From: Clostridia bacterium
GTDB lineage: Bacteria > Bacillota > Clostridia > Oscillospirales > Acutalibacteraceae
NCBI GenBank assembly: GCA_017433225.1
Contig: JAFRHS010000044.1
Coordinates: forward strand, 28,317-92,316
Length of the DNA stretch: 64,000 bases
Direction of reading: 5' to 3'
This document shows, in pieces, positions 1 through 21,853 of the stretch (position 1 is the first letter of the stretch; every line of letters begins with the position of its first letter). Position numbers and translations under genes: made by a program. Under the pieces are notes generated by a model. It worked only from the letters and a program-made list of their open reading frames with translations, had not been told where the DNA came from and did not search any database.

Positions 1-260
1 GGTTTAGGACTTTTCTTTTCCCTACCAGTTAATAAGAAGTCTGCAGAAACATTAAAGACCTCAGCCAATAATGACAGCGTATCAATCCCAGGGAGCATAT
101 CGTCATTACGATACTTTGAAAGAGTGCCCGCTCCAATGCCAATACGCCGCGCTATTTCCGCCTGGGAAATGCCTTTTTCTTTTTGCTTATTCAATTCATT
201 TTTCAACCGCTGGTTAAACTGCCCGCGGTCGAAATTGTAGGTTTCGCCTTTATGGCTCAT
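1..260 (-). CDS. XRE-family (cI-like) HTH repressor, first 86 codons; C-terminus lies left of the window
   Basis: Own reverse-strand translation from ATG 260-258: MSHKGETYNFDRGQFNQRLKNELNKQKEKGISQAEIARRIGIGAGTLSKYRNDDMLPGIDTLSLLAEVFNVSADFLLTGREKKSPK. HTH_3 pattern is present. Absent from the ORF track because there is no stop in the window. Divergent from a small HTH gene. Confidence 0.75.
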   Translation of the reverse strand, partial: MSHKGETYNFDRGQFNQRLKNELNKQKEKGISQAEIARRIGIGAGTLSKYRNDDMLPGIDTLSLLAEVFNVSADFLLTGREKKSPK

Positions 261-452
261 AGTCGTATCACCGTCCTTAAGGTGTTTCTCAAGGTAATAC
301 TACAGCAACAGCAACTATAAGTCAATCAAAGCATATATGCGTGTTTTGGAAATGTTTATTTTCTAAAATTTCTATTCCGTCAATATCGAATGGGCGATAC
401 AATGCGAGTGTAAGCAATAACAACAAAAAGCGAATAGAAAGAAGGTGAAACG

Positions 453-623
453 ATGCCAGGAGCAGAAGTAAAGCGGATGATCCTTGACGCAGGCCTGTAC
501 CTTTACCAGGTGGCAGATGAATTGGGGGTTACTGACAGCTGGTTCTCCAAAATGCTGCGCCACGACTTCACAGCCGAGGACACGGAGCGGGTCAAGGCTG
601 CCATTGAGAAACTGACCAAGTAA
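453..623 (+). CDS. Small cro-like HTH protein (56 aa)
   Basis: Own translation: MPGAEVKRMILDAGLYLYQVADELGVTDSWFSKMLRHDFTAEDTERVKAAIEKLTK. GAAGGTGA Shine-Dalgarno 5 nt upstream. Below the 60-aa cut-off of the ORF track. Divergent from the XRE repressor. Confidence 0.6.
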   Translation: MPGAEVKRMILDAGLYLYQVADELGVTDSWFSKMLRHDFTAEDTERVKAAIEKLTK

Positions 624-666
624 ACCAAAAAGCCCACAGCGGACCGCTGAGAGCATTTTAGAGGGG

Positions 667-1137
667 GTGCTTTTATTGTACTTGTATCACGCCACAAACT
701 CCGAAAGCGTCCCGGAAATTCTCGAAAAAGGGTTAATACCTAAAGGGCCTTTTAGCGCAGTGTGCTTTTCAACCAGTATTGCCGGGGCGTTAGGCGGAGC
801 AGAGTTTACGCGGATGTATAAACAAGCAGTTCGCCTTAACAAGATTTATTGTGATCCCTGCAGGGCCGCCGGGAGGAGGCCGCCGGAAATCTATCTATAT
901 GTTACGGTTTTTGCTGTTCCTTTTAGTGACATCGCGGAAAGGAAACACAAAAAAGTAGGCACGTATTGGGATGAGTGGCGCAGTTATGAGCCCGTCCCCG
1001 TGGCAGATTGTAAAAGGATGGATTATTACTATATCTCTGATCAAGACGGAGTATTCGAGCGGTGGTATAACCCAAAAGATGAAACAAACTGGGCAACAGA
1101 TATCACGCTTGAGCCCTCAGACTGGACTTCTGAGTAG
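667..1137 (+). CDS. Hypothetical island protein (156 aa); N-terminus weakly reminiscent of ADP-ribosyltransferase-fold proteins
   Basis: ORF track. LYHATNSESVPEILEKGLIP followed by CFSTS. The true start may be TTG at 676, 9 nt after GAGGGGG. No family securely recognised. Confidence 0.5.
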   Translation: MLLLYLYHATNSESVPEILEKGLIPKGPFSAVCFSTSIAGALGGAEFTRMYKQAVRLNKIYCDPCRAAGRRPPEIYLYVTVFAVPFSDIAERKHKKVGTYWDEWRSYEPVPVADCKRMDYYYISDQDGVFERWYNPKDETNWATDITLEPSDWTSE

Positions 1138-1354
1138 TGCGTCCATACGGAGCGGGACAAAGAGCGCCCGCGGGTAGGCATTCAGCTGGAACTTCATTTT
1201 CTGTTATGGTGTTCTGCCATTTCTCCATAGCAGGGTTACATTCATACAGTTGTTGCCTAAAAGGGAGTTTCATTGTCTCGGTCACAGTCAGCCTTTCTAT
1301 TGCCCGTCGTGCAATTAATAATCATTCCCGCGGGCGTTCTTTAGCCCGCTCCGT

Positions 1355-1454
1355 GAAAAAGAAAAGACCCTGGGAAAGCCCAGGGCGTAGTCATTAACAA
1401 TAGGTCGGACCCGCGGGAAGTGGTCCCCTATCGCCGTGCTTATCATAGCACAGA
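1355..1454 (-). ncRNA. Candidate ~100-nt countertranscript antisense to the leader of the xis-primase operon
   Basis: Minus-strand promoter TTGAAA (1489-1484), 16-17 nt spacer, CATAAT/ATAATA (1467-1461). Three hairpins follow at 1436-1451, 1400-1431 and 1368-1385, the last followed by a U-run (complement of 1355-1367). Confidence 0.3.
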
Positions 1455-1464
1455 AAGAGGTATT

Positions 1465-1671
1465 ATGCAAAAAGACAGAACCGTTTCAAACTGGGATAAA
1501 TTGCCAGTGGTTTTAGATGTCCACACCGTAGCACTTATCTTTGACGTTTCAGATCAGACCGTTAAGACCTGGTTACAAACCGGGAAACTGAAAGCCACAA
1601 AGGTTGCCCGCAAATGGGTCATTGACCGCGACTATATCCGTGGAATCGTTCAAGGGGGTGCGACTTTATGA
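1465..1671 (+). CDS. Excisionase-type (HTH_17/MerR-like) DNA-binding protein
   Basis: ATG 1465 lies 4 nt after AGAAAGAGG. LPVVLDVHTVALIFDVSDQTVKTWLQTGKLKATKVARKWVIDRDYI matches the excisionase-family HTH pattern. Its stop overlaps the next ATG (ATGA). Confidence 0.7.
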   Translation: MQKDRTVSNWDKLPVVLDVHTVALIFDVSDQTVKTWLQTGKLKATKVARKWVIDRDYIRGIVQGGATL

Positions 1672-2171
1672 GCGGCACAGGTATTGTAAGAGCCTACTTG
1701 GCGATGAACCCGGAAACCAGGAAAAGCGACTACGAATTGGCGCGGCGCGTCTATCACACTGTGGGTTACCGTTACGGTGTCACTAAGGCAGAAGTAGATG
1801 CTGCCATCGACACCCTGGAAAAGCTACACCCCACATTTAGGTCCATCATCCGGCTGCGGTCTGTTATCACCAGGAGCCACCCGGAATGGACAGACCCGGA
1901 AACGGAGAGAAAACGGAAAAAGAACGAACCAAAATACAGGGCCCGATACAGTAATGGCAAAGAGCCCGCGCCCCCTTATGAGATCCCGGCGGAGATCATA
2001 GCGCAAAACCGTGAGATCGAACTAACCAGGGTAATTATGATCCTTCTCACCCTGCAGATGCCCGGCTCCGCAATTAAGGCCGCAGTGGATGCTGTCAACA
2101 ATGAGCGATGCAGGCCCCCGTTGGATACAGACACTTTGACCCTTTTGTTTGATGGGAGCGGGATAGAATGA
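1668..2171 (+). CDS. Stand-alone PriCT-1-like domain protein (167 aa)
   Basis: C-terminal YEIPAEIIAQNREIELTRVIMILLTLQMPGSAIKAAVDAVNNERCRPPLDTDTLTLLF aligns with YEFPAEIVEGQRNSELYKAACSLLGRGLSETAARAALNAENLEKCSPPLDDAEIEQLF inside the 757-aa primase. Translationally coupled on both sides. Confidence 0.6.
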   Translation: MSGTGIVRAYLAMNPETRKSDYELARRVYHTVGYRYGVTKAEVDAAIDTLEKLHPTFRSIIRLRSVITRSHPEWTDPETERKRKKNEPKYRARYSNGKEPAPPYEIPAEIIAQNREIELTRVIMILLTLQMPGSAIKAAVDAVNNERCRPPLDTDTLTLLFDGSGIE

Positions 2172-2368
2172 GCACTAGCAGATGGGGCGAACACTGGGAA
2201 GATGAAGAAAACGAGGAAGGACTATCCCGGGGCCTTTTGGAAAGACGTTTCTTTGACGATGAAATACTGCCCGCATTCGCTGAGGAATACGACATAAACC
2301 TATATGACATAGAGGACCCGTCCGACTACTACGAGGATGCTATGGACTGGTACGACGATAATTATTAA
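2168..2368 (+). CDS. Hyper-acidic 66-aa protein (possible DNA mimic)
   Basis: By my count 23 of 66 residues are D/E, with only 4 R and no K. Aromatic-rich. ATGA overlap with the upstream gene. Confidence 0.55.
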   Translation: MSTSRWGEHWEDEENEEGLSRGLLERRFFDDEILPAFAEEYDINLYDIEDPSDYYEDAMDWYDDNY

Positions 2369-2421
2369 AGCAAAGGCGGCGGCTCAGGGCCGCTGCCTAT
2401 TTTTGAAAGAGGGTTGATGCA

Positions 2422-4695
2422 TTGAGCGATAACAAGATGAGGGACGCGGCCCTGGAATACGCCCAGGCAGGCTATGCGGTATTTCCCATTAAGGCAAAGG
2501 GTAAAACTCCGCTCATTAAGGAATGGCAAAAGAGAGCCACCACAGACAAAAACAAAATATCCAGCTGGTGGGACAAATGGCCCCAGGCCAACATCGCTAT
2601 AGCCTGTGGGCAGATGTCCCGCGGGCTGATCGTCATTGACGTAGATAAGAAATCCGGCGGCTTAGAAACAGTGGCGGACTGGGAGCGGGAAAACGGGACA
2701 CTAACCAGCTGCCAGCGGAGCATAACAGGCAGTGGCGGATTTCATTATTTTTACACTAGCAGGATATCAGATCAATACACCAATAAGGCGGGAGTATATC
2801 AAGGCGTAGACCTTAGAACAGATGGGGGTTATATCATTGCTCCCCCGTCATTACACCCCGGCGGCGGAGTGTATCAATGGGAAATGGATGCTATTACCGA
2901 TAACAGCCCCATAGAACTGAGCGGAACAGCGGAACAGTTCATAGAACCAGCATTAAAGGACTTTGACGATGGTATGCCCGCTCCGCATTATGAATTTCCG
3001 GCGGAGATCGTAGAGGGACAGCGAAACAGTGAACTGTATAAAGCCGCCTGCTCACTATTGGGGCGCGGTCTGAGTGAGACGGCGGCCCGGGCGGCACTTA
3101 ACGCGGAAAACTTGGAAAAGTGTTCCCCACCTTTAGACGATGCAGAAATAGAACAGCTTTTCAACAGTGCTGTTGCATTCATTAACTCTGATCGGTCCCG
3201 CTCCGCCGGGGCGGATCTTTCACGCGCAGCACTGGCAAGTGGCCTTGAACCCAGCGCCGACAAGTCCCCGCTAGATTATTCAGATATCGAACTGGTGTAC
3301 GTTCTTAATGAAATGAAAGTCAGCACGGACCGAAGGTATAACAGCCTGTCGGACATTGCCGCCGGGGCCCTGTTCAATTCCATATACGGTAAGTATCTGC
3401 GTTATAACACTACGGCCCGCGGGTGGTATTGGTACAACGGGATCAACTGGCAGCGGGACCGCACGGAGCGGGCGGAGAAGGCCGCGGAGACGCTTTCTAA
3501 TGCCTTGTACCATTATGCCGTGGGCCAGGGAGACGCTTATCAGAAACTAGCAGGCAGGCTGCAGGATATCAACAAAAGAGACAAAATGCTGAGGGATGCA
3601 CAAAAGCACAACCCCATTACCAGCGAAATGCTAGACCAAAAGCCGGACCTGTTCAACTGTAAGTGTGGAACATACAACCTCAAAACTCGCAAATGGAAAG
3701 ACCACGACCCGGCGGACCTTCTCAGCAAGTGCGCTAATGTCACGGAGCGGGACTGCCAGTATACAGACTTTGAAAAGGTCGTTACGCAAATACTCCCGGA
3801 CAAGGAAATAAGAGACTATTTCCAAATGGTCATTGGCCTGTGCCTATCTGAGGACACCACCCCGGCAGAGTTTTATATCATCTTGGGTGAAACCACCAGG
3901 AACGGAAAGTCAACTCTGTTAAATGCTATAGGGGCAATGATGGGAGACTACCATTTAACCATAGCGCCGGAAACGCTGGAAAAGGCAAACCGAGTAAATA
4001 GCAGCGGACCCAGCCCGGACAGATCGCGCTTTCAAGGTGCGCGGATGATCCACGCGGAAGAACCCCGGCGCGGTATGCCGTTAGACAGTGCATTTATCAA
4101 GGCTATAACAGGTGGCGATACAATGACCGCAAGGCAGCTACACCAAGAGCCCGTCTCTTTCCGGGTGGTTGGCAAGCTGGTCATTGTTACAAACCACCTG
4201 CCAGCCGTTTCCGATACAACCGTCTTTAGTTCGGAGCGGGTGGCAGTGATCCCGTTTGAGCAGCGTTTCATTGGCACGAAAAGAGACTACCACCTGCAGG
4301 AGCGAATGCGGAAACAGGAAATGCTTAACCAGTGTTTTTCCTGGGCGTGTGAAGGAAATCAAAAATACAGAAACGCAAAAGACTTCAAAACAAACAGACC
4401 AGCTGCCATAACTAAGCGAGTGGATCAATACCAGGCGGACAGCGACTATATAGGCCAGTTTATCAAGGACTGCATAAAGAAAGACCCGGAAGGCTGTATA
4501 AGATCCCAGGAATGTTACCACGCGTACAAGTATTGGTGTGAAGAAAACAACTGTAAACCGTTCGGCCCTAGAGCGTTCAATTCAGAATTGCGAGGGCCAC
4601 AAAGAGGACATTTGTTAAAGGACAGCGCAACAGTAGACGGTAAAACAGTAAGAAATGTTATCCCAGGTTATAGTCTGAAAGACAGTACGGGTTAA
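2422..4695 (+). CDS. Bifunctional primase-polymerase / PriCT / P4-D5-type helicase (phage-plasmid primase, P4 family)
   Basis: 757 aa. Prim-Pol motifs (GYAVFPI, LIVIDVDKK, GGFHYFY), a PriCT-1 segment and Walker A GETTRNGKST. TTG start 8 nt after AGAGGG; alternative ATG at 2437. Confidence 0.85.
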   Translation: MSDNKMRDAALEYAQAGYAVFPIKAKGKTPLIKEWQKRATTDKNKISSWWDKWPQANIAIACGQMSRGLIVIDVDKKSGGLETVADWERENGTLTSCQRSITGSGGFHYFYTSRISDQYTNKAGVYQGVDLRTDGGYIIAPPSLHPGGGVYQWEMDAITDNSPIELSGTAEQFIEPALKDFDDGMPAPHYEFPAEIVEGQRNSELYKAACSLLGRGLSETAARAALNAENLEKCSPPLDDAEIEQLFNSAVAFINSDRSRSAGADLSRAALASGLEPSADKSPLDYSDIELVYVLNEMKVSTDRRYNSLSDIAAGALFNSIYGKYLRYNTTARGWYWYNGINWQRDRTERAEKAAETLSNALYHYAVGQGDAYQKLAGRLQDINKRDKMLRDAQKHNPITSEMLDQKPDLFNCKCGTYNLKTRKWKDHDPADLLSKCANVTERDCQYTDFEKVVTQILPDKEIRDYFQMVIGLCLSEDTTPAEFYIILGETTRNGKSTLLNAIGAMMGDYHLTIAPETLEKANRVNSSGPSPDRSRFQGARMIHAEEPRRGMPLDSAFIKAITGGDTMTARQLHQEPVSFRVVGKLVIVTNHLPAVSDTTVFSSERVAVIPFEQRFIGTKRDYHLQERMRKQEMLNQCFSWACEGNQKYRNAKDFKTNRPAAITKRVDQYQADSDYIGQFIKDCIKKDPEGCIRSQECYHAYKYWCEENNCKPFGPRAFNSELRGPQRGHLLKDSATVDGKTVRNVIPGYSLKDSTG

Positions 4696-5598
4696 GAGAC
4701 ACTGAAAAAGCCGATTTTTCGCCTTTTCCAAAAACCACGTAGTTACGCCATTTGTGCAGTTTGTGCAGTTTAGTATCGTTTTTTCCCGGGAAAACAAAAT
4801 TAAAAAAAATATAGAATAAAACTGCACAAACTGCACATTTCAGCCTAATGAATATTATTCATTCGCTTATTTGCCGTAAAACAACGGTAAATTGTGTATG
4901 AATATGCAAAACAGCGCTTGTTTATGCATATATCCACCCTCTTTTATGCATAACTGCAGCTGGAGCGGGTGGAGAATTATACAAAATACGTCTTTTATCC
5001 TAAATGGTTTTAGGCGGCTCAGCTGCTAGCCGCCTGGGGCTGCTTATAGTACAGTGGATCAATCGCCCTGGGGTTCACAATATGATATTATTGCCATAGA
5101 CCCGTTAGGGTCGTATCAGCCTTTCTGTTTCCCGGTCCTGTATCGCCACAGGGCCGGGATCTCTTTTTAAGTTCGAACATATCGAACCTTTCTTTTTTTA
5201 GGGGCGCACCTTCCGCGAGATACTCCCCTTTTTTTGGGGCTGTATTATCTGACGATGCACCCCTTTTTTAGGGGCTCAGAAATGACGGAAAGCTCTTTTT
5301 AAGGTGGCAGGTATAGAAGGATGGCATTTCACGTAATGCCTGCCTACGGCCTTATTTGAGGCAATAATACACTTGCCCACTGCCCAGGCGGAATATAGGC
5401 AATACTTCAAAATGGGATCAAGTGGTATAACTTTGGTATAACTTTGTATACCAGTTTTTCCAGCACCGACGTAGTTACGCCGTTACCTGGGCTTGATTTT
5501 GGTATACATTTTGGTATACACCATAGCGAAAAATAGGGGCAAAGTACGATAAGTTGTACATTTTATTTTCTGATTTGGAAAAATAATATTTATGAAAA
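4696..5598. repeat. Non-coding iteron/inverted-repeat field, probable replication origin of the island
   Basis: Tandem TTTGTGCAG x2 (4751-4771) with an inverted copy at 4819-4837 around an AT-rich core. TTTATGCATA x2 (4921-4951). Five YCYTTTTT(T)AGGGGC-like units about 30-38 bp apart (5161-5300). Four GGTATA(A/C) units (5424-5522). Three ACGTAGTTACGC copies. Confidence 0.5.
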
Positions 5599-5638
5599 AA
5601 CGCTCAAAAACCACGTAGTTACGCGATTTTTGAGCGTT
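5593..5638 (-). terminator. Intrinsic terminator of tRNA-Pro
   Basis: 12-bp stem AACGCTCAAAAA/TTTTTGAGCGTT (5599-5610 / 5627-5638) with a 16-nt loop, followed on the minus strand by a U-run. Confidence 0.65.
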
Positions 5639-5644
5639 TCCTCT

Positions 5645-5720
5645 TGGTCCGAGTGGCGAGACTTGAACTCACGGCCTCTTGACCCCCAGTCAAGCGCGCT
5701 ACCAACTGCGCCACACCCGG
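5645..5720 (-). tRNA. tRNA-Pro (anticodon GGG), CCA encoded
   Basis: Hand-folded reverse complement: CCGGGTG TG GCGC AGTTGGTA GCGC G CTTGA CTGGGGG TCAAG AGGCC GTGAG TTCAAGT CTCGC CACTCGG A CCA. 76 nt. Confidence 0.9.
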
Positions 5721-10038: not shown

Positions 10039-10123
10039 GCGAGAGTGGCGGAATTGGCAGACGCGCACGTTTGAGGGGCGTGTGGAGTGATTCGTACGGG
10101 TTCAAGTCCCGTCTCTCGCACCA
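10039..10123 (+). tRNA. tRNA-Leu (anticodon GAG), CCA encoded
   Basis: GCGAGAG TG GCGGAATTGGCAGACGC G CACGT TTGAGGG GCGTG, long variable arm, GGGTTCAAGTCCCGT CTCTCGC A CCA. Confidence 0.9.
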
Positions 10124-10129
10124 AAAAAT

Positions 10130-10159
10130 AGCCGACCCGTATGGGTCGGCTGTTTTTTT
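10130..10159 (+). terminator. Intrinsic terminator after tRNA-Leu(GAG)
   Basis: AGCCGACCC GTAT GGGTCGGCT followed by TTTTTTT. Confidence 0.8.
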
Positions 10160-10164
10160 GTCCT

Positions 10165-10289
10165 GACGGGACTTGAACCTTTAGGCCGGAGCGTTAAGAA
10201 AACAGCACGGTGGGCTGTTTTTAGCGACGGGAGGTGCGGCAGCACCTCGGTGCGGCTTGCGAAGCAAGACGCATCAAGTCCCGTCTCTC
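10165..10289 (+). repeat. tRNA-Leu-linked cassette A: conserved ~89-nt module flanked by an inverted and a direct copy of the tRNA T-arm/acceptor 3' segment
   Basis: GACGGGACTTGAACC (10165-10179) is the exact reverse complement of tRNA GGTTCAAGTCCCGTC. CAAGTCCCGTCTCTC (10275-10289) repeats the tRNA 3' part. The module is about nine-tenths identical to 21475-21563 by hand alignment. Confidence 0.6.
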
Positions 10290-21342: not shown

Positions 21343-21429
21343 GCGGACGTGGCGGAATTGGCAGACGCGCTAGATTCAGGTTCTAGTGAATGCAAGTTCA
21401 TGTGGGTTCAAGTCCCGTCGTCCGCACCA
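21343..21429 (+). tRNA. tRNA-Leu (anticodon CAG), CCA encoded
   Basis: GCGGACG TG GCGGAATTGGCAGACGC G CTAGA TTCAGGT TCTAG, long variable arm, GGGTTCAAGTCCCGT CGTCCGC A CCA. Confidence 0.9.
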
Positions 21430-21430
21430 G

Positions 21431-21471
21431 GAAACAGCGAACACGCTTATGCGTATTCGCTGTTTCTTTTT
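21431..21471 (+). terminator. Intrinsic terminator after tRNA-Leu(CAG)
   Basis: GAAACAGCGAACACGC TTAT GCGTATTCGCTGTTTC followed by TTTTT. Confidence 0.8.
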
Positions 21472-21474
21472 GCG

Positions 21475-21735
21475 GACAGGGACTTGAACCGAAGGCCGGA
21501 GCGTCAGGAAAACAGTCCGGTGGACTGTTTTTAGCGACGGGAGGTGCGGCAGCACTTCGGTGCAATTTCGCAAAGCGAAATTGCAGTACGGTCAGAAACA
21601 TAGTCGTCTCGCTCGCTTGGAGCGCGTCGCGATACTCCTTGTTTCTTCCTGTTCGACGACACTGCTTCATCTGCCGCAGGCAGCGCAGTGCCGCGAACCA
21701 AGTCCCGTCGTCCGCACGGCGGCAGTCCCGTCGTC
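21475..21735 (+). repeat. tRNA-Leu-linked cassette B: same conserved module, longer, with two further direct copies of the tRNA 3' segment
   Basis: GACAGGGACTTGAACC (21475-21490) is an inverted T-arm copy. The module runs to 21563. CAAGTCCCGTCGTCCGCAC (21699-21717) and AGTCCCGTCGTC (21724-21735) repeat this tRNA's own 3' end. Confidence 0.6.
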
Positions 21736-21853
21736 GTTTATTTACATCTTGTACACCATACATCCTTGCGTTTTAATCGGGTAATTGGTAGAATTTTACA
21801 CGGTAAGTTTCTTGCTGATTATGTATGTAAATTTCATGAATGGGAGAGATTTT

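Follow-up and report, generated by a model that had tools for sequence, protein, structure and literature searches.

The 3' ends of tRNA genes and of rpsI are documented insertion targets of the IMEs and ICEs of Firmicutes, whose gene-less, att-flanked derivatives are known as CIMEs (PMC5704250). For islands residing in tRNA genes (tDNA islands), the hallmark is a split gene that has been restored, accompanied by a displaced fragment (PMC4383910). We have analyzed a stretch of 64,000 nucleotides from a Clostridia bacterium of the Acutalibacteraceae (hereafter, the window), in which one hairpin-rich module occurs behind each of two tRNA-Leu genes. With moderate confidence, we interpret this module as the structured core (hairpins P2 to P4) of a family of non-coding, non-autonomous integrative cassettes that nest at the 3' ends of tRNA genes. 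The family is not previously described, either in Rfam or in the literature that we found.

A first-pass annotation, prepared from the letters of the window alone, had aligned the two copies of the module by hand and counted eight substitutions and two single-nucleotide gaps. Global alignment of copy A (10165-10252) with copy B (21475-21563) reproduced these figures, adding only one end gap to the two internal ones. The hairpins to which that annotation had drawn attention are likewise real. In copy A, AAAACAGCAC-GGT-GGGCTGTTTT corresponds to AAAACAGTCC-GGT-GGACTGTTTT in copy B, where a C-G pair has become T-A with pairing kept; in this AAAACAG hairpin, copy B additionally mends an A.G mismatch of copy A. 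The hairpin GAGGTGC-GGCA-GCACCTC of copy A ends in GCACTTC in copy B, giving a G.U pair, and 3' of CGGT both copies carry a tri-loop hairpin, the stems of which are unrelated (GCGGCTTGC-GAA-GCAAGACGC versus GCAATTTCGC-AAA-GCGAAATTGC). Each of the core motifs occurs twice in the window, against an expectation of 0.00-0.01, and the fold, when closed by its outer arms, reaches z-scores of -5.0 (copy A) and -5.8 (copy B). What has to be given up is the notion of a two-copy feature: the module forms the core of an insertion cassette that is present in many copies and is linked to tRNA 3' ends.

All parts of cassettes A and B lie on the plus strand. Cassette A targets the gene for tRNA-Leu(GAG) (10039..10123, found by ARAGORN and Rfam RF00005), whose last 22 nucleotides, T55 to A76, constitute the repeated segment that we call X. 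A terminator hairpin, T1 (10124..10161; stem 10130-10151, loop CGTAT, A/T tracts on both sides), stands between the tRNA and the cassette core. The left arm X' (GACGGGACTTGAACC, 10165..10179) is the reverse complement of tRNA positions ~52-66, which comprise the T-loop and the 3' strand of the T-stem. P2 (10186..10230), the most conserved part of the family, consists of a base helix, CCGGAGC/GCGACGG with tandem G.A, a 5' bulge, GUUAA, and a G.U plus AAAACAGCAC-GGU-GGGCUGUUUU. It is followed by P3 (GAGGTGC-GGCA-GCACCTC, 10231..10248) and by P4 (10249..10275), in which a GCGAAGC apex (a GNA tri-loop) caps a stem whose sequence differs among copies. The right arm X (TCAAGTCCCGTCTCTC, 10274..10289) is a direct copy of tRNA-Leu(GAG) that starts at T55 and stops after 16 nucleotides; its pairing with the left arm forms P1.

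Cassette B has the same order behind tRNA-Leu(CAG) (21343..21429; ARAGORN, Rfam). Its T1 hairpin (21430..21471) precedes a left arm, GCGGAC-A-GGGACTTGAACC (21472..21490), complementary to the acceptor 3' strand, T-stem and T-loop of that tRNA, and a core at 21496..21586 (P2 21496-21540, P3 21541-21558, P4 21559-21586). Nested behind this core, and not present in copy A, is a second element, core2 (GTACGGTCAGAAACATAGTCG...CTGTTCGAC plus a hairpin; 21587..21698), which belongs to a separate multi-copy family. The right arm (CAAGTCCCGTCGTCCGCAC, 21699..21717) copies the 3' end of tRNA-Leu(CAG) directly, through the discriminator and the first C, and a second partial direct copy (AGTCCCGTCGTCG) is found at 21724..21736. 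The acceptor sequence peculiar to tRNA-Leu(CAG) is found in both arms of copy B. Decay in copy A appears to have affected the right arm and some of the left arm, leaving the core intact.

The outer closure of the module, GACGGGA...TCCCGTC, is an inverted plus a direct copy of the adjacent tRNA's own 3' end. Because GACGGGA occurs twice in copy A, it had been suggested that the two occurrences compete for the distal TCCCGTC in mutually exclusive closures. The motifs are indeed there (GACGGGA at 10165 and 10226, TCCCGTC at 10107 and 10279), but exclusive closure is no property of the element, as copies behind Arg, Ser, Lys, Pro and other tRNAs have no such match. The GACGGGA at 10226 is the family-invariant P2/P3 junction, GCGACGGGAG, which matches TCCCGTC because both tRNA-Leu genes have a CCCGT T-stem; the alternative closures are a coincidence of these two tRNA-Leu loci.

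Within its own 2.1 Mb genome, BLAST found 23 matches to the module (some 15 significant), and 18 came from a covariance model for which 13 own-genome copies had been used; overall, about 14-18 copies are present there. The same model detected 6-20 copies in each of six sister species and 1-2 in two more, with none in the 11 other genomes of the genus, which are more distant at the compared locus (eight of the 19 searched are positive). A same-strand tRNA gene lies 40-54 nucleotides upstream in 66 of 84 model matches, more than 20 tRNA species being represented, while the remaining matches are at contig ends, are second tandem units or are weak. The layout runs from the tRNA through a terminator, an inverted copy (X') of the tRNA 3' segment and the P2-P4 hairpins to a direct copy that begins at T55. 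X' has no complement of NCCA, and X, terminator and X' together make up one long imperfect palindrome centered on the terminator loop.

The arms follow the tRNA beside which they stand. The cassette's own tRNA gives the best score for the right arm in 57 of 66 copies, and mean scores against cognate and non-cognate tRNAs are 17.0 versus 6.7 for the right arm and 14.3 versus 8.6 for the left. Identity to the tRNA begins at T55 in every one of the 59 copies with a recognizable right arm. In 14 of them the arm is perfect through CCA (22/22); the others end early, at variable distal points (3' extents of 13-22 nucleotides), and nearly all mismatches are distal. Tandem units occur, as do partial ones, such as P4 plus X, or the 3' half of P2 through to X. 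In a few copies, for example at Ser(TGA) in one sister genome (G010) and at Pro(CGG) in another (G002), the left arm matches another tRNA better than its own, which hints at hops between tRNAs; assembly chimeras are another possible source of such mismatches, since contigs break inside cassettes. Contigs C60 (58412-58496), C37 (81669-81876), C52 and C59 of the source genome end inside cassettes, and the ends of C60 and C37 apparently make up a single tRNA-Leu(TAA) cassette, one half each, with a second tandem unit behind it. Cassette repeats break this assembly and could create chimeric joins.

Sites behind tRNA-Pro(TGG), Ser(TGA) and Thr(CGT) are empty in the source genome and filled in G016, G017 or G010. 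A filled site reads tRNA, new terminator, X', core and a perfect T55-to-CCA copy, after which the exact flank that follows CCA at the empty site resumes, including the native terminator where one exists. This comparison shows that the cassette is inserted DNA: a precise insertion of ~190 nucleotides, bounded by a 22-nucleotide direct repeat (T55 to CCA), that brings its own terminator. G019, G006 and G008 have no cassette behind tRNA-Leu(GAG), and the terminator at their empty site is homologous to T1 of copy A. At this locus in the window, and at tRNA-Pro(CGG) of the source genome, the terminator upstream appears to be native, and there is no second one downstream; G010 retains a remnant of a second native-like terminator 3' of the right arm. 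Copy A would fit an older or different case, in which a unit of X plus terminator was duplicated and later decayed. Both loci call for extra deletions or a second mode of insertion.

A covariance model of collected homologues, which the first-pass annotation had proposed, revealed compensatory variation. In the alignment fitted to this model (85 copies from eight related genomes, many of the rows being related), 97.8% of cells pair, compared with 38-46% in slid controls, and two-sided change is seen in 34 of 40 pairs; no shuffle matched the observed values. Two G.U pairs are conserved, in 69 of 83 and 65 of 81 copies, and G.U plus U.G combinations outnumber A.C plus C.A by 186 to 11 across the 85 copies. 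The latter excess identifies the tRNA-sense strand as the one that folds and, together with the conserved G.U pairs, points to a single-stranded form of that strand. The module had been thought to be either a structured RNA or a set of palindromes bound by a recombinase or another protein; a conserved, strand-specific fold with compensatory variation stands, but double-stranded protein-binding palindromes do not. A tRNA-like gene on the minus strand was also considered and set aside, as ARAGORN and Rfam found none and the G.U polarity favors the plus strand.

The loops are NGY in P2, GGCA in P3 and GCGNAGC in P4, the apex of the last being GCGAAGC in 42 copies and a GNA-type variant in others. 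As DNA, d(GCGAAGC) forms a mini-hairpin of unusual stability. This stability, the dominance of d(GCGNAGC)-type tri-loops and the lack of GNRA and UNCG loops incline us towards a core that acts as a single strand, in the tRNA sense, and as ssDNA in preference to RNA. When one locus is compared between sister species, its copies differ in entire stem variants (30 two-sided changes to nine breaks); this looks like exchange among copies and not like slow compensatory drift, although a comparison of orthologues does not separate selection in place from gene conversion.

P2 extends well beyond the genus. Its exact 29-mer, AAGAAAACAGNCCNGNGGNCTGTTTTTAG, is present on at least 120 GTDB contigs and 17 IMG/VR contigs, with hosts that include Ruminococcus, Oscillospiraceae, Acutalibacteraceae, Faecousia, Lachnospiraceae, Eubacterium and Christensenella, as well as the Coriobacteriia Slackia and Adlercreutzia. 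An invariant P2 thus spans Oscillospirales, Lachnospiraceae and Coriobacteriia, behind tRNA, tmRNA and rpsI genes. Most of the 29-mer matches listed are 60-116 nucleotides behind a same-strand tRNA, or multiples thereof in tandem arrays, and all 62 tRNAs found beside P2 share its strand. One copy is located behind a tmRNA gene. Behind rpsI (S9), tandem units of ~150 nucleotides occur at seven loci (L192, L180, L181, L209, L211, L225 and L241), each unit comprising the last 19 nucleotides of rpsI, a terminator, a hairpin and P2 in antisense, with direct repeats only and no inverted arm. The complete genome of Ruminococcus sp. JE7B6 carries 11 exact P2 copies at seven loci. One JE7B6 cassette lies inside an rRNA operon (L304 1415-1605), in the order 23S, tRNA, tRNA, cassette, tRNA, 5S, and has a perfect 22-nucleotide repeat without a strong terminator. 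At a prophage end on each of two IMG/VR contigs (L157, L165), the cassettes lie beyond the displaced tRNA fragment, towards the host, and the same is true of a cassette at the tRNA-Pro(GGG) island of the source genome.

A few occurrences of P2 lie outside these settings. In one Pseudomonadota MAG and one Rhodobacterales MAG (L206 7070-7140; L218 1200-1270), a P2 copy of 44-50 nucleotides, GGAGCGTGAAGAAAACAGTCCGGTGGACTGTTTTTAGCGACG, interrupts the ORF of an IS630-type transposase between YSPD and PIE, out of frame. In Bifidobacterium biavatii and B. goeldii (L190 7880-8000; L228 3640-3960), P2 copies occupy a repeated GC-rich region together with an antisense T-loop-like piece, GCGGATTCGAAC, and have no tRNA within 8 kb. 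A match in Sphingomonas was discarded as a native rpsM hairpin that fits the pattern by chance, without homology.

Neighboring loci contain related arrangements. Core2, nested in copy B, also stands alone behind a 5S rRNA gene and its terminator (L150 1459-1645, on contig C9 of the source genome), with the 5S 3' end repeated on its two sides, once inverted and once direct. Further copies of core2, two to nine per genome in the same set of species, are found in ordinary intergenic regions with inverted arms of their own. Given the rpsI-linked units and the 5S-linked core2, a T-loop-specific mechanism is weakened as the whole story. An island of ~8 kb, which covers window positions 1-5720 and G000:C25:25940-27500 just to the left of the window (G000 being the source genome), splits tRNA-Pro(GGG) and has a 408-aa integrase beside a displaced 40-nucleotide tRNA fragment. 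Behind this fragment is a further cassette, whose right arm runs in full through CCA and which has a second terminator; in G017, the same locus has no island.

The earlier statement that the module belongs to no known RNA family was borne out by covariance-model searches at gathering and permissive thresholds alike. With Rfam 15, only tRNAs reach the gathering threshold in the window, and matches at both loci up to E=10 are noise, namely miRNA and sRNA models that score 10-25 bits where 41-137 would be needed. Literature searches by sequence and by keywords found no description of the cassette, and plasmid and phage collections yielded no match to the core. Cassettes measure 125-290 nucleotides and contain no ORF of note. 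The source genome, a 97%-complete MAG from which plasmids and phages may therefore have been left unbinned, encodes two tyrosine recombinases and no more, namely an Xer-like enzyme and that of the tRNA-Pro island, neither of them inside a cassette. It has no match to the Y1 HUH transposase (PF01797) and no member of the Rep_trans, Mob_Pre or Relaxase families, the helpers sought for an oriT or a single-strand origin. Reverse transcriptase (RVT_1) is absent from all cassette-bearing genomes of the genus and present only in 3-4 genomes without cassettes.

Measured against known classes, the cassette shares with tDNA integrative elements a direct repeat of the gene's 3' end, here the 22-nucleotide T55-A76 repeat, and a regenerated gene, but has no integrase or recombinase of its own. 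Like CIMEs, it has att-like repeats and no genes, but descent from an ICE or IME is unsupported: the core is unmatched in the plasmid and phage collections, and no full-length relative was seen. A MITE was rejected, as the inverted arms differ by locus and match the adjacent tRNA, and the duplication amounts to 22 nucleotides of gene end. An IS200/IS605-derived PATE or REPIN was rejected in the light of the missing Y1 transposase and of the flank of the sole TnpB gene, which by eye is unlike the core, and a retroelement in the light of the missing reverse transcriptase in cassette-bearing genomes of the genus. That TnpB gene (400 aa; L148 1085-2652, G000:C26:41226-42793) is convergent to tRNA-Ala(CGC), just past its terminator, and its presumed omega-RNA region bears no visible resemblance to the cassette. 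As for P2 as an intrinsic terminator, a UUUUU run closes its stem but is itself paired with an A-run further upstream, and a terminator scan made no call.

A fresh insertion can be described as T55..CCA, a new terminator, X' and the core, placed in the T-loop, or, equivalently, as terminator, X', core and T55..CCA, placed after CCA. Either form leaves the tRNA intact and terminated, and the displaced or duplicated 22 nucleotides stay as the right arm. Under the integrative reading that we favor, units would be gained and lost by recombination across the 22-nucleotide repeat, through a recombinase acting in trans or through homologous exchange after DNA transfer. Cognate arms may persist because the tRNA remains functional only with a matching 3' end, and the single-stranded core may offer a handle to mobilizing or replicating machinery. 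Targeting of tRNA, tmRNA and rpsI genes, a regenerated gene and a displaced fragment are together the signature of tyrosine integrases, and the cassettes therefore read as miniature non-autonomous integrative elements. Several observations run counter to this reading. No mover was found in the source genome, and more than 20 tRNA targets would have to be served by integrases of many specificities, by a single enzyme generic for T-loops, or by RecA on as little as 22 nucleotides. The model leaves the origin and the retargeting of the inverted arm X' unexplained, and well-paired cores in a genome without visible mobilization genes could instead have a function in place.

Such a function could be that of a structured RNA tied to its tRNA and made by read-through from the tRNA promoter, which we regard as rather unlikely. 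The 5' arm X' would be antisense to the T-arm and acceptor 3' strand, the 3' arm would mimic the acceptor end, P1 would be an acceptor/T mini-helix of 12-16 bp with a free NCCA, and P2-P4 would be the scaffold of an antisense guide, a decoy, or a tRNA-like substrate of RNase P or the CCA-adding enzyme. The folding of the tRNA-sense strand with its conserved G.U pairs is consistent with this proposal, as are the position of X' directly before the invariant P2 in tRNA and rpsI versions (a guide-plus-scaffold layout), the cores that are intact where arms have decayed, and the JE7B6 copy among tRNA genes, which must be transcribed on that strand because it is inside an rRNA operon. The proposal has to contend, however, with the strong terminator upstream of the cassette, with a P2 that is itself terminator-like and with the failure to find a promoter belonging to the cassette. 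The orientation of P2 differs as well: it is sense to 62 of 62 tRNAs but antisense to rpsI at seven loci, and hence in no fixed relation to the host transcript. Decaying arms, right arms that end at variable points, a patchy distribution with precise presence or absence, tandem and partial units, and tri-loops rather than GNRA or UNCG loops also argue against an RNA.

Templated copying instead of conservative recombination, which we judge quite unlikely, would make the arms themselves the product of the process: a polymerase would snap back at the terminator hairpin, copy the tRNA 3' end into X', copy the core from another cassette and re-prime at T55, either on DNA, by quasi-palindrome template switching, or by way of an RNA intermediate that carries a tRNA-like CCA as its 3' tag, like the Mauriceville retroplasmid. 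The long imperfect palindrome around the terminator loop, the repeat that ends at the mature tRNA 3' end, the X' that has no NCCA complement, the tandem partial units without a 5' part (resembling 5'-truncated copies), the varying right-arm extents (13-22 nucleotides) and the native upstream terminator at tRNA-Leu(GAG) all suit such copying. Young insertions, on the other hand, bring a foreign terminator, which snap-back on the resident locus could not produce; the rpsI version has direct repeats only, and the cassette-bearing genomes of the genus have no reverse transcriptase. A long shot, in our estimation, is that X' beside the invariant P2 is a programmable guide (RNA or ssDNA) that would pair with the last ~20 nucleotides of a tRNA, tmRNA or rpsI gene and direct insertion at the duplex ends, giving the exact T55-to-CCA duplication. 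After an off-target hop, pairing between the old guide and the new duplicate in P1, followed by hairpin-templated repair, would rewrite the guide, and the result would be a self-reprogramming homing cassette that encodes no protein and is served by a host or helper enzyme. It is highly improbable that the cassettes are passive scars, that is, functionless, worn att remnants or CIMEs left by ordinary integrase-bearing prophages, IMEs and ICEs. A direct repeat that copies the tRNA 3' end from the T-loop onward is the classical attR signature (PMC4383910; PMC1762012), and cassettes are frequent neighbors of prophage ends in IMG/VR contigs, with one adjoining the tRNA-Pro(GGG) island. At prophage ends, however, they stand on the host side of the displaced piece of tRNA; one core of uniform boundaries recurs behind more than 20 tRNAs, P2 is the same letter for letter across families, and random decay of unrelated elements would give neither a shared core nor 97.8% pairing.

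If the integrative reading holds, roughly one tRNA gene in three in these gut and rumen Clostridia hosts a tiny passenger that has no genes and provides the terminator of the tRNA, and the classical tRNA, tmRNA and rpsI target set is used without an integrase of the element's own. These would be, to our knowledge, the smallest integrative elements reported. The letter-perfect P2 across families would point to a conserved partner, either a recombinase or a protein that handles single strands. The cassettes fragment metagenome assemblies, can be mistaken for att scars, and add terminators and long palindromes beside essential RNA genes.

Among known systems, MITEs, REP/BIME/REPIN, BOX, RUP and Correia elements resemble the cassettes in being multi-copy, intergenic, non-coding, hairpin-rich and patchy, and in breaking assemblies. 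Those elements have terminal repeats of their own, the same in every copy, whereas the arms of the cassette are copied from the adjacent gene; the cassette targets a gene 3' end and leaves a 22-nucleotide repeat in place of a short duplication, and its source genome has no RAYT/Y1. Sites that act as folded single strands, such as integron attC, the attP hairpin used by CTX phage with XerCD, sso/ssi and oriT, have a strand-specific fold that tolerates sequence change and stable mini-hairpins of the DNA type, as does the cassette. In the cassette, X, terminator and X' could adopt a fold that reproduces the target site in double-stranded form; there are, in contrast to those sites, no AAC/GTT boxes in attC register and no dif-like site, and no relaxase, IntI or Rep was found. 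Retroelements with tRNA-related ends (primer-binding sites; Mauriceville) share the complement of a tRNA 3' end and a 3'-end copy that ends at CCA, but the carrier genomes of the genus have no reverse transcriptase and the cassette sits beside the matching tRNA gene. The cassettes also resemble the tDNA islands, IMEs and ICEs of tyrosine integrases, and CIMEs, which insert at tRNA, tmRNA and rpsI 3' ends, restore the gene end, leave a direct repeat that starts in the T-loop and accrete in tandem (PMC5704250, PMC4383910, PMC1762012). No full-length relative of the cassette, and no integrase related to it, was found. From these islands and their derivatives the cassette is set apart by a length of only about 125-200 nucleotides without any gene, by the use of one folded core for more than 20 targets, and by an extra, inverted copy of the target's 3' end.
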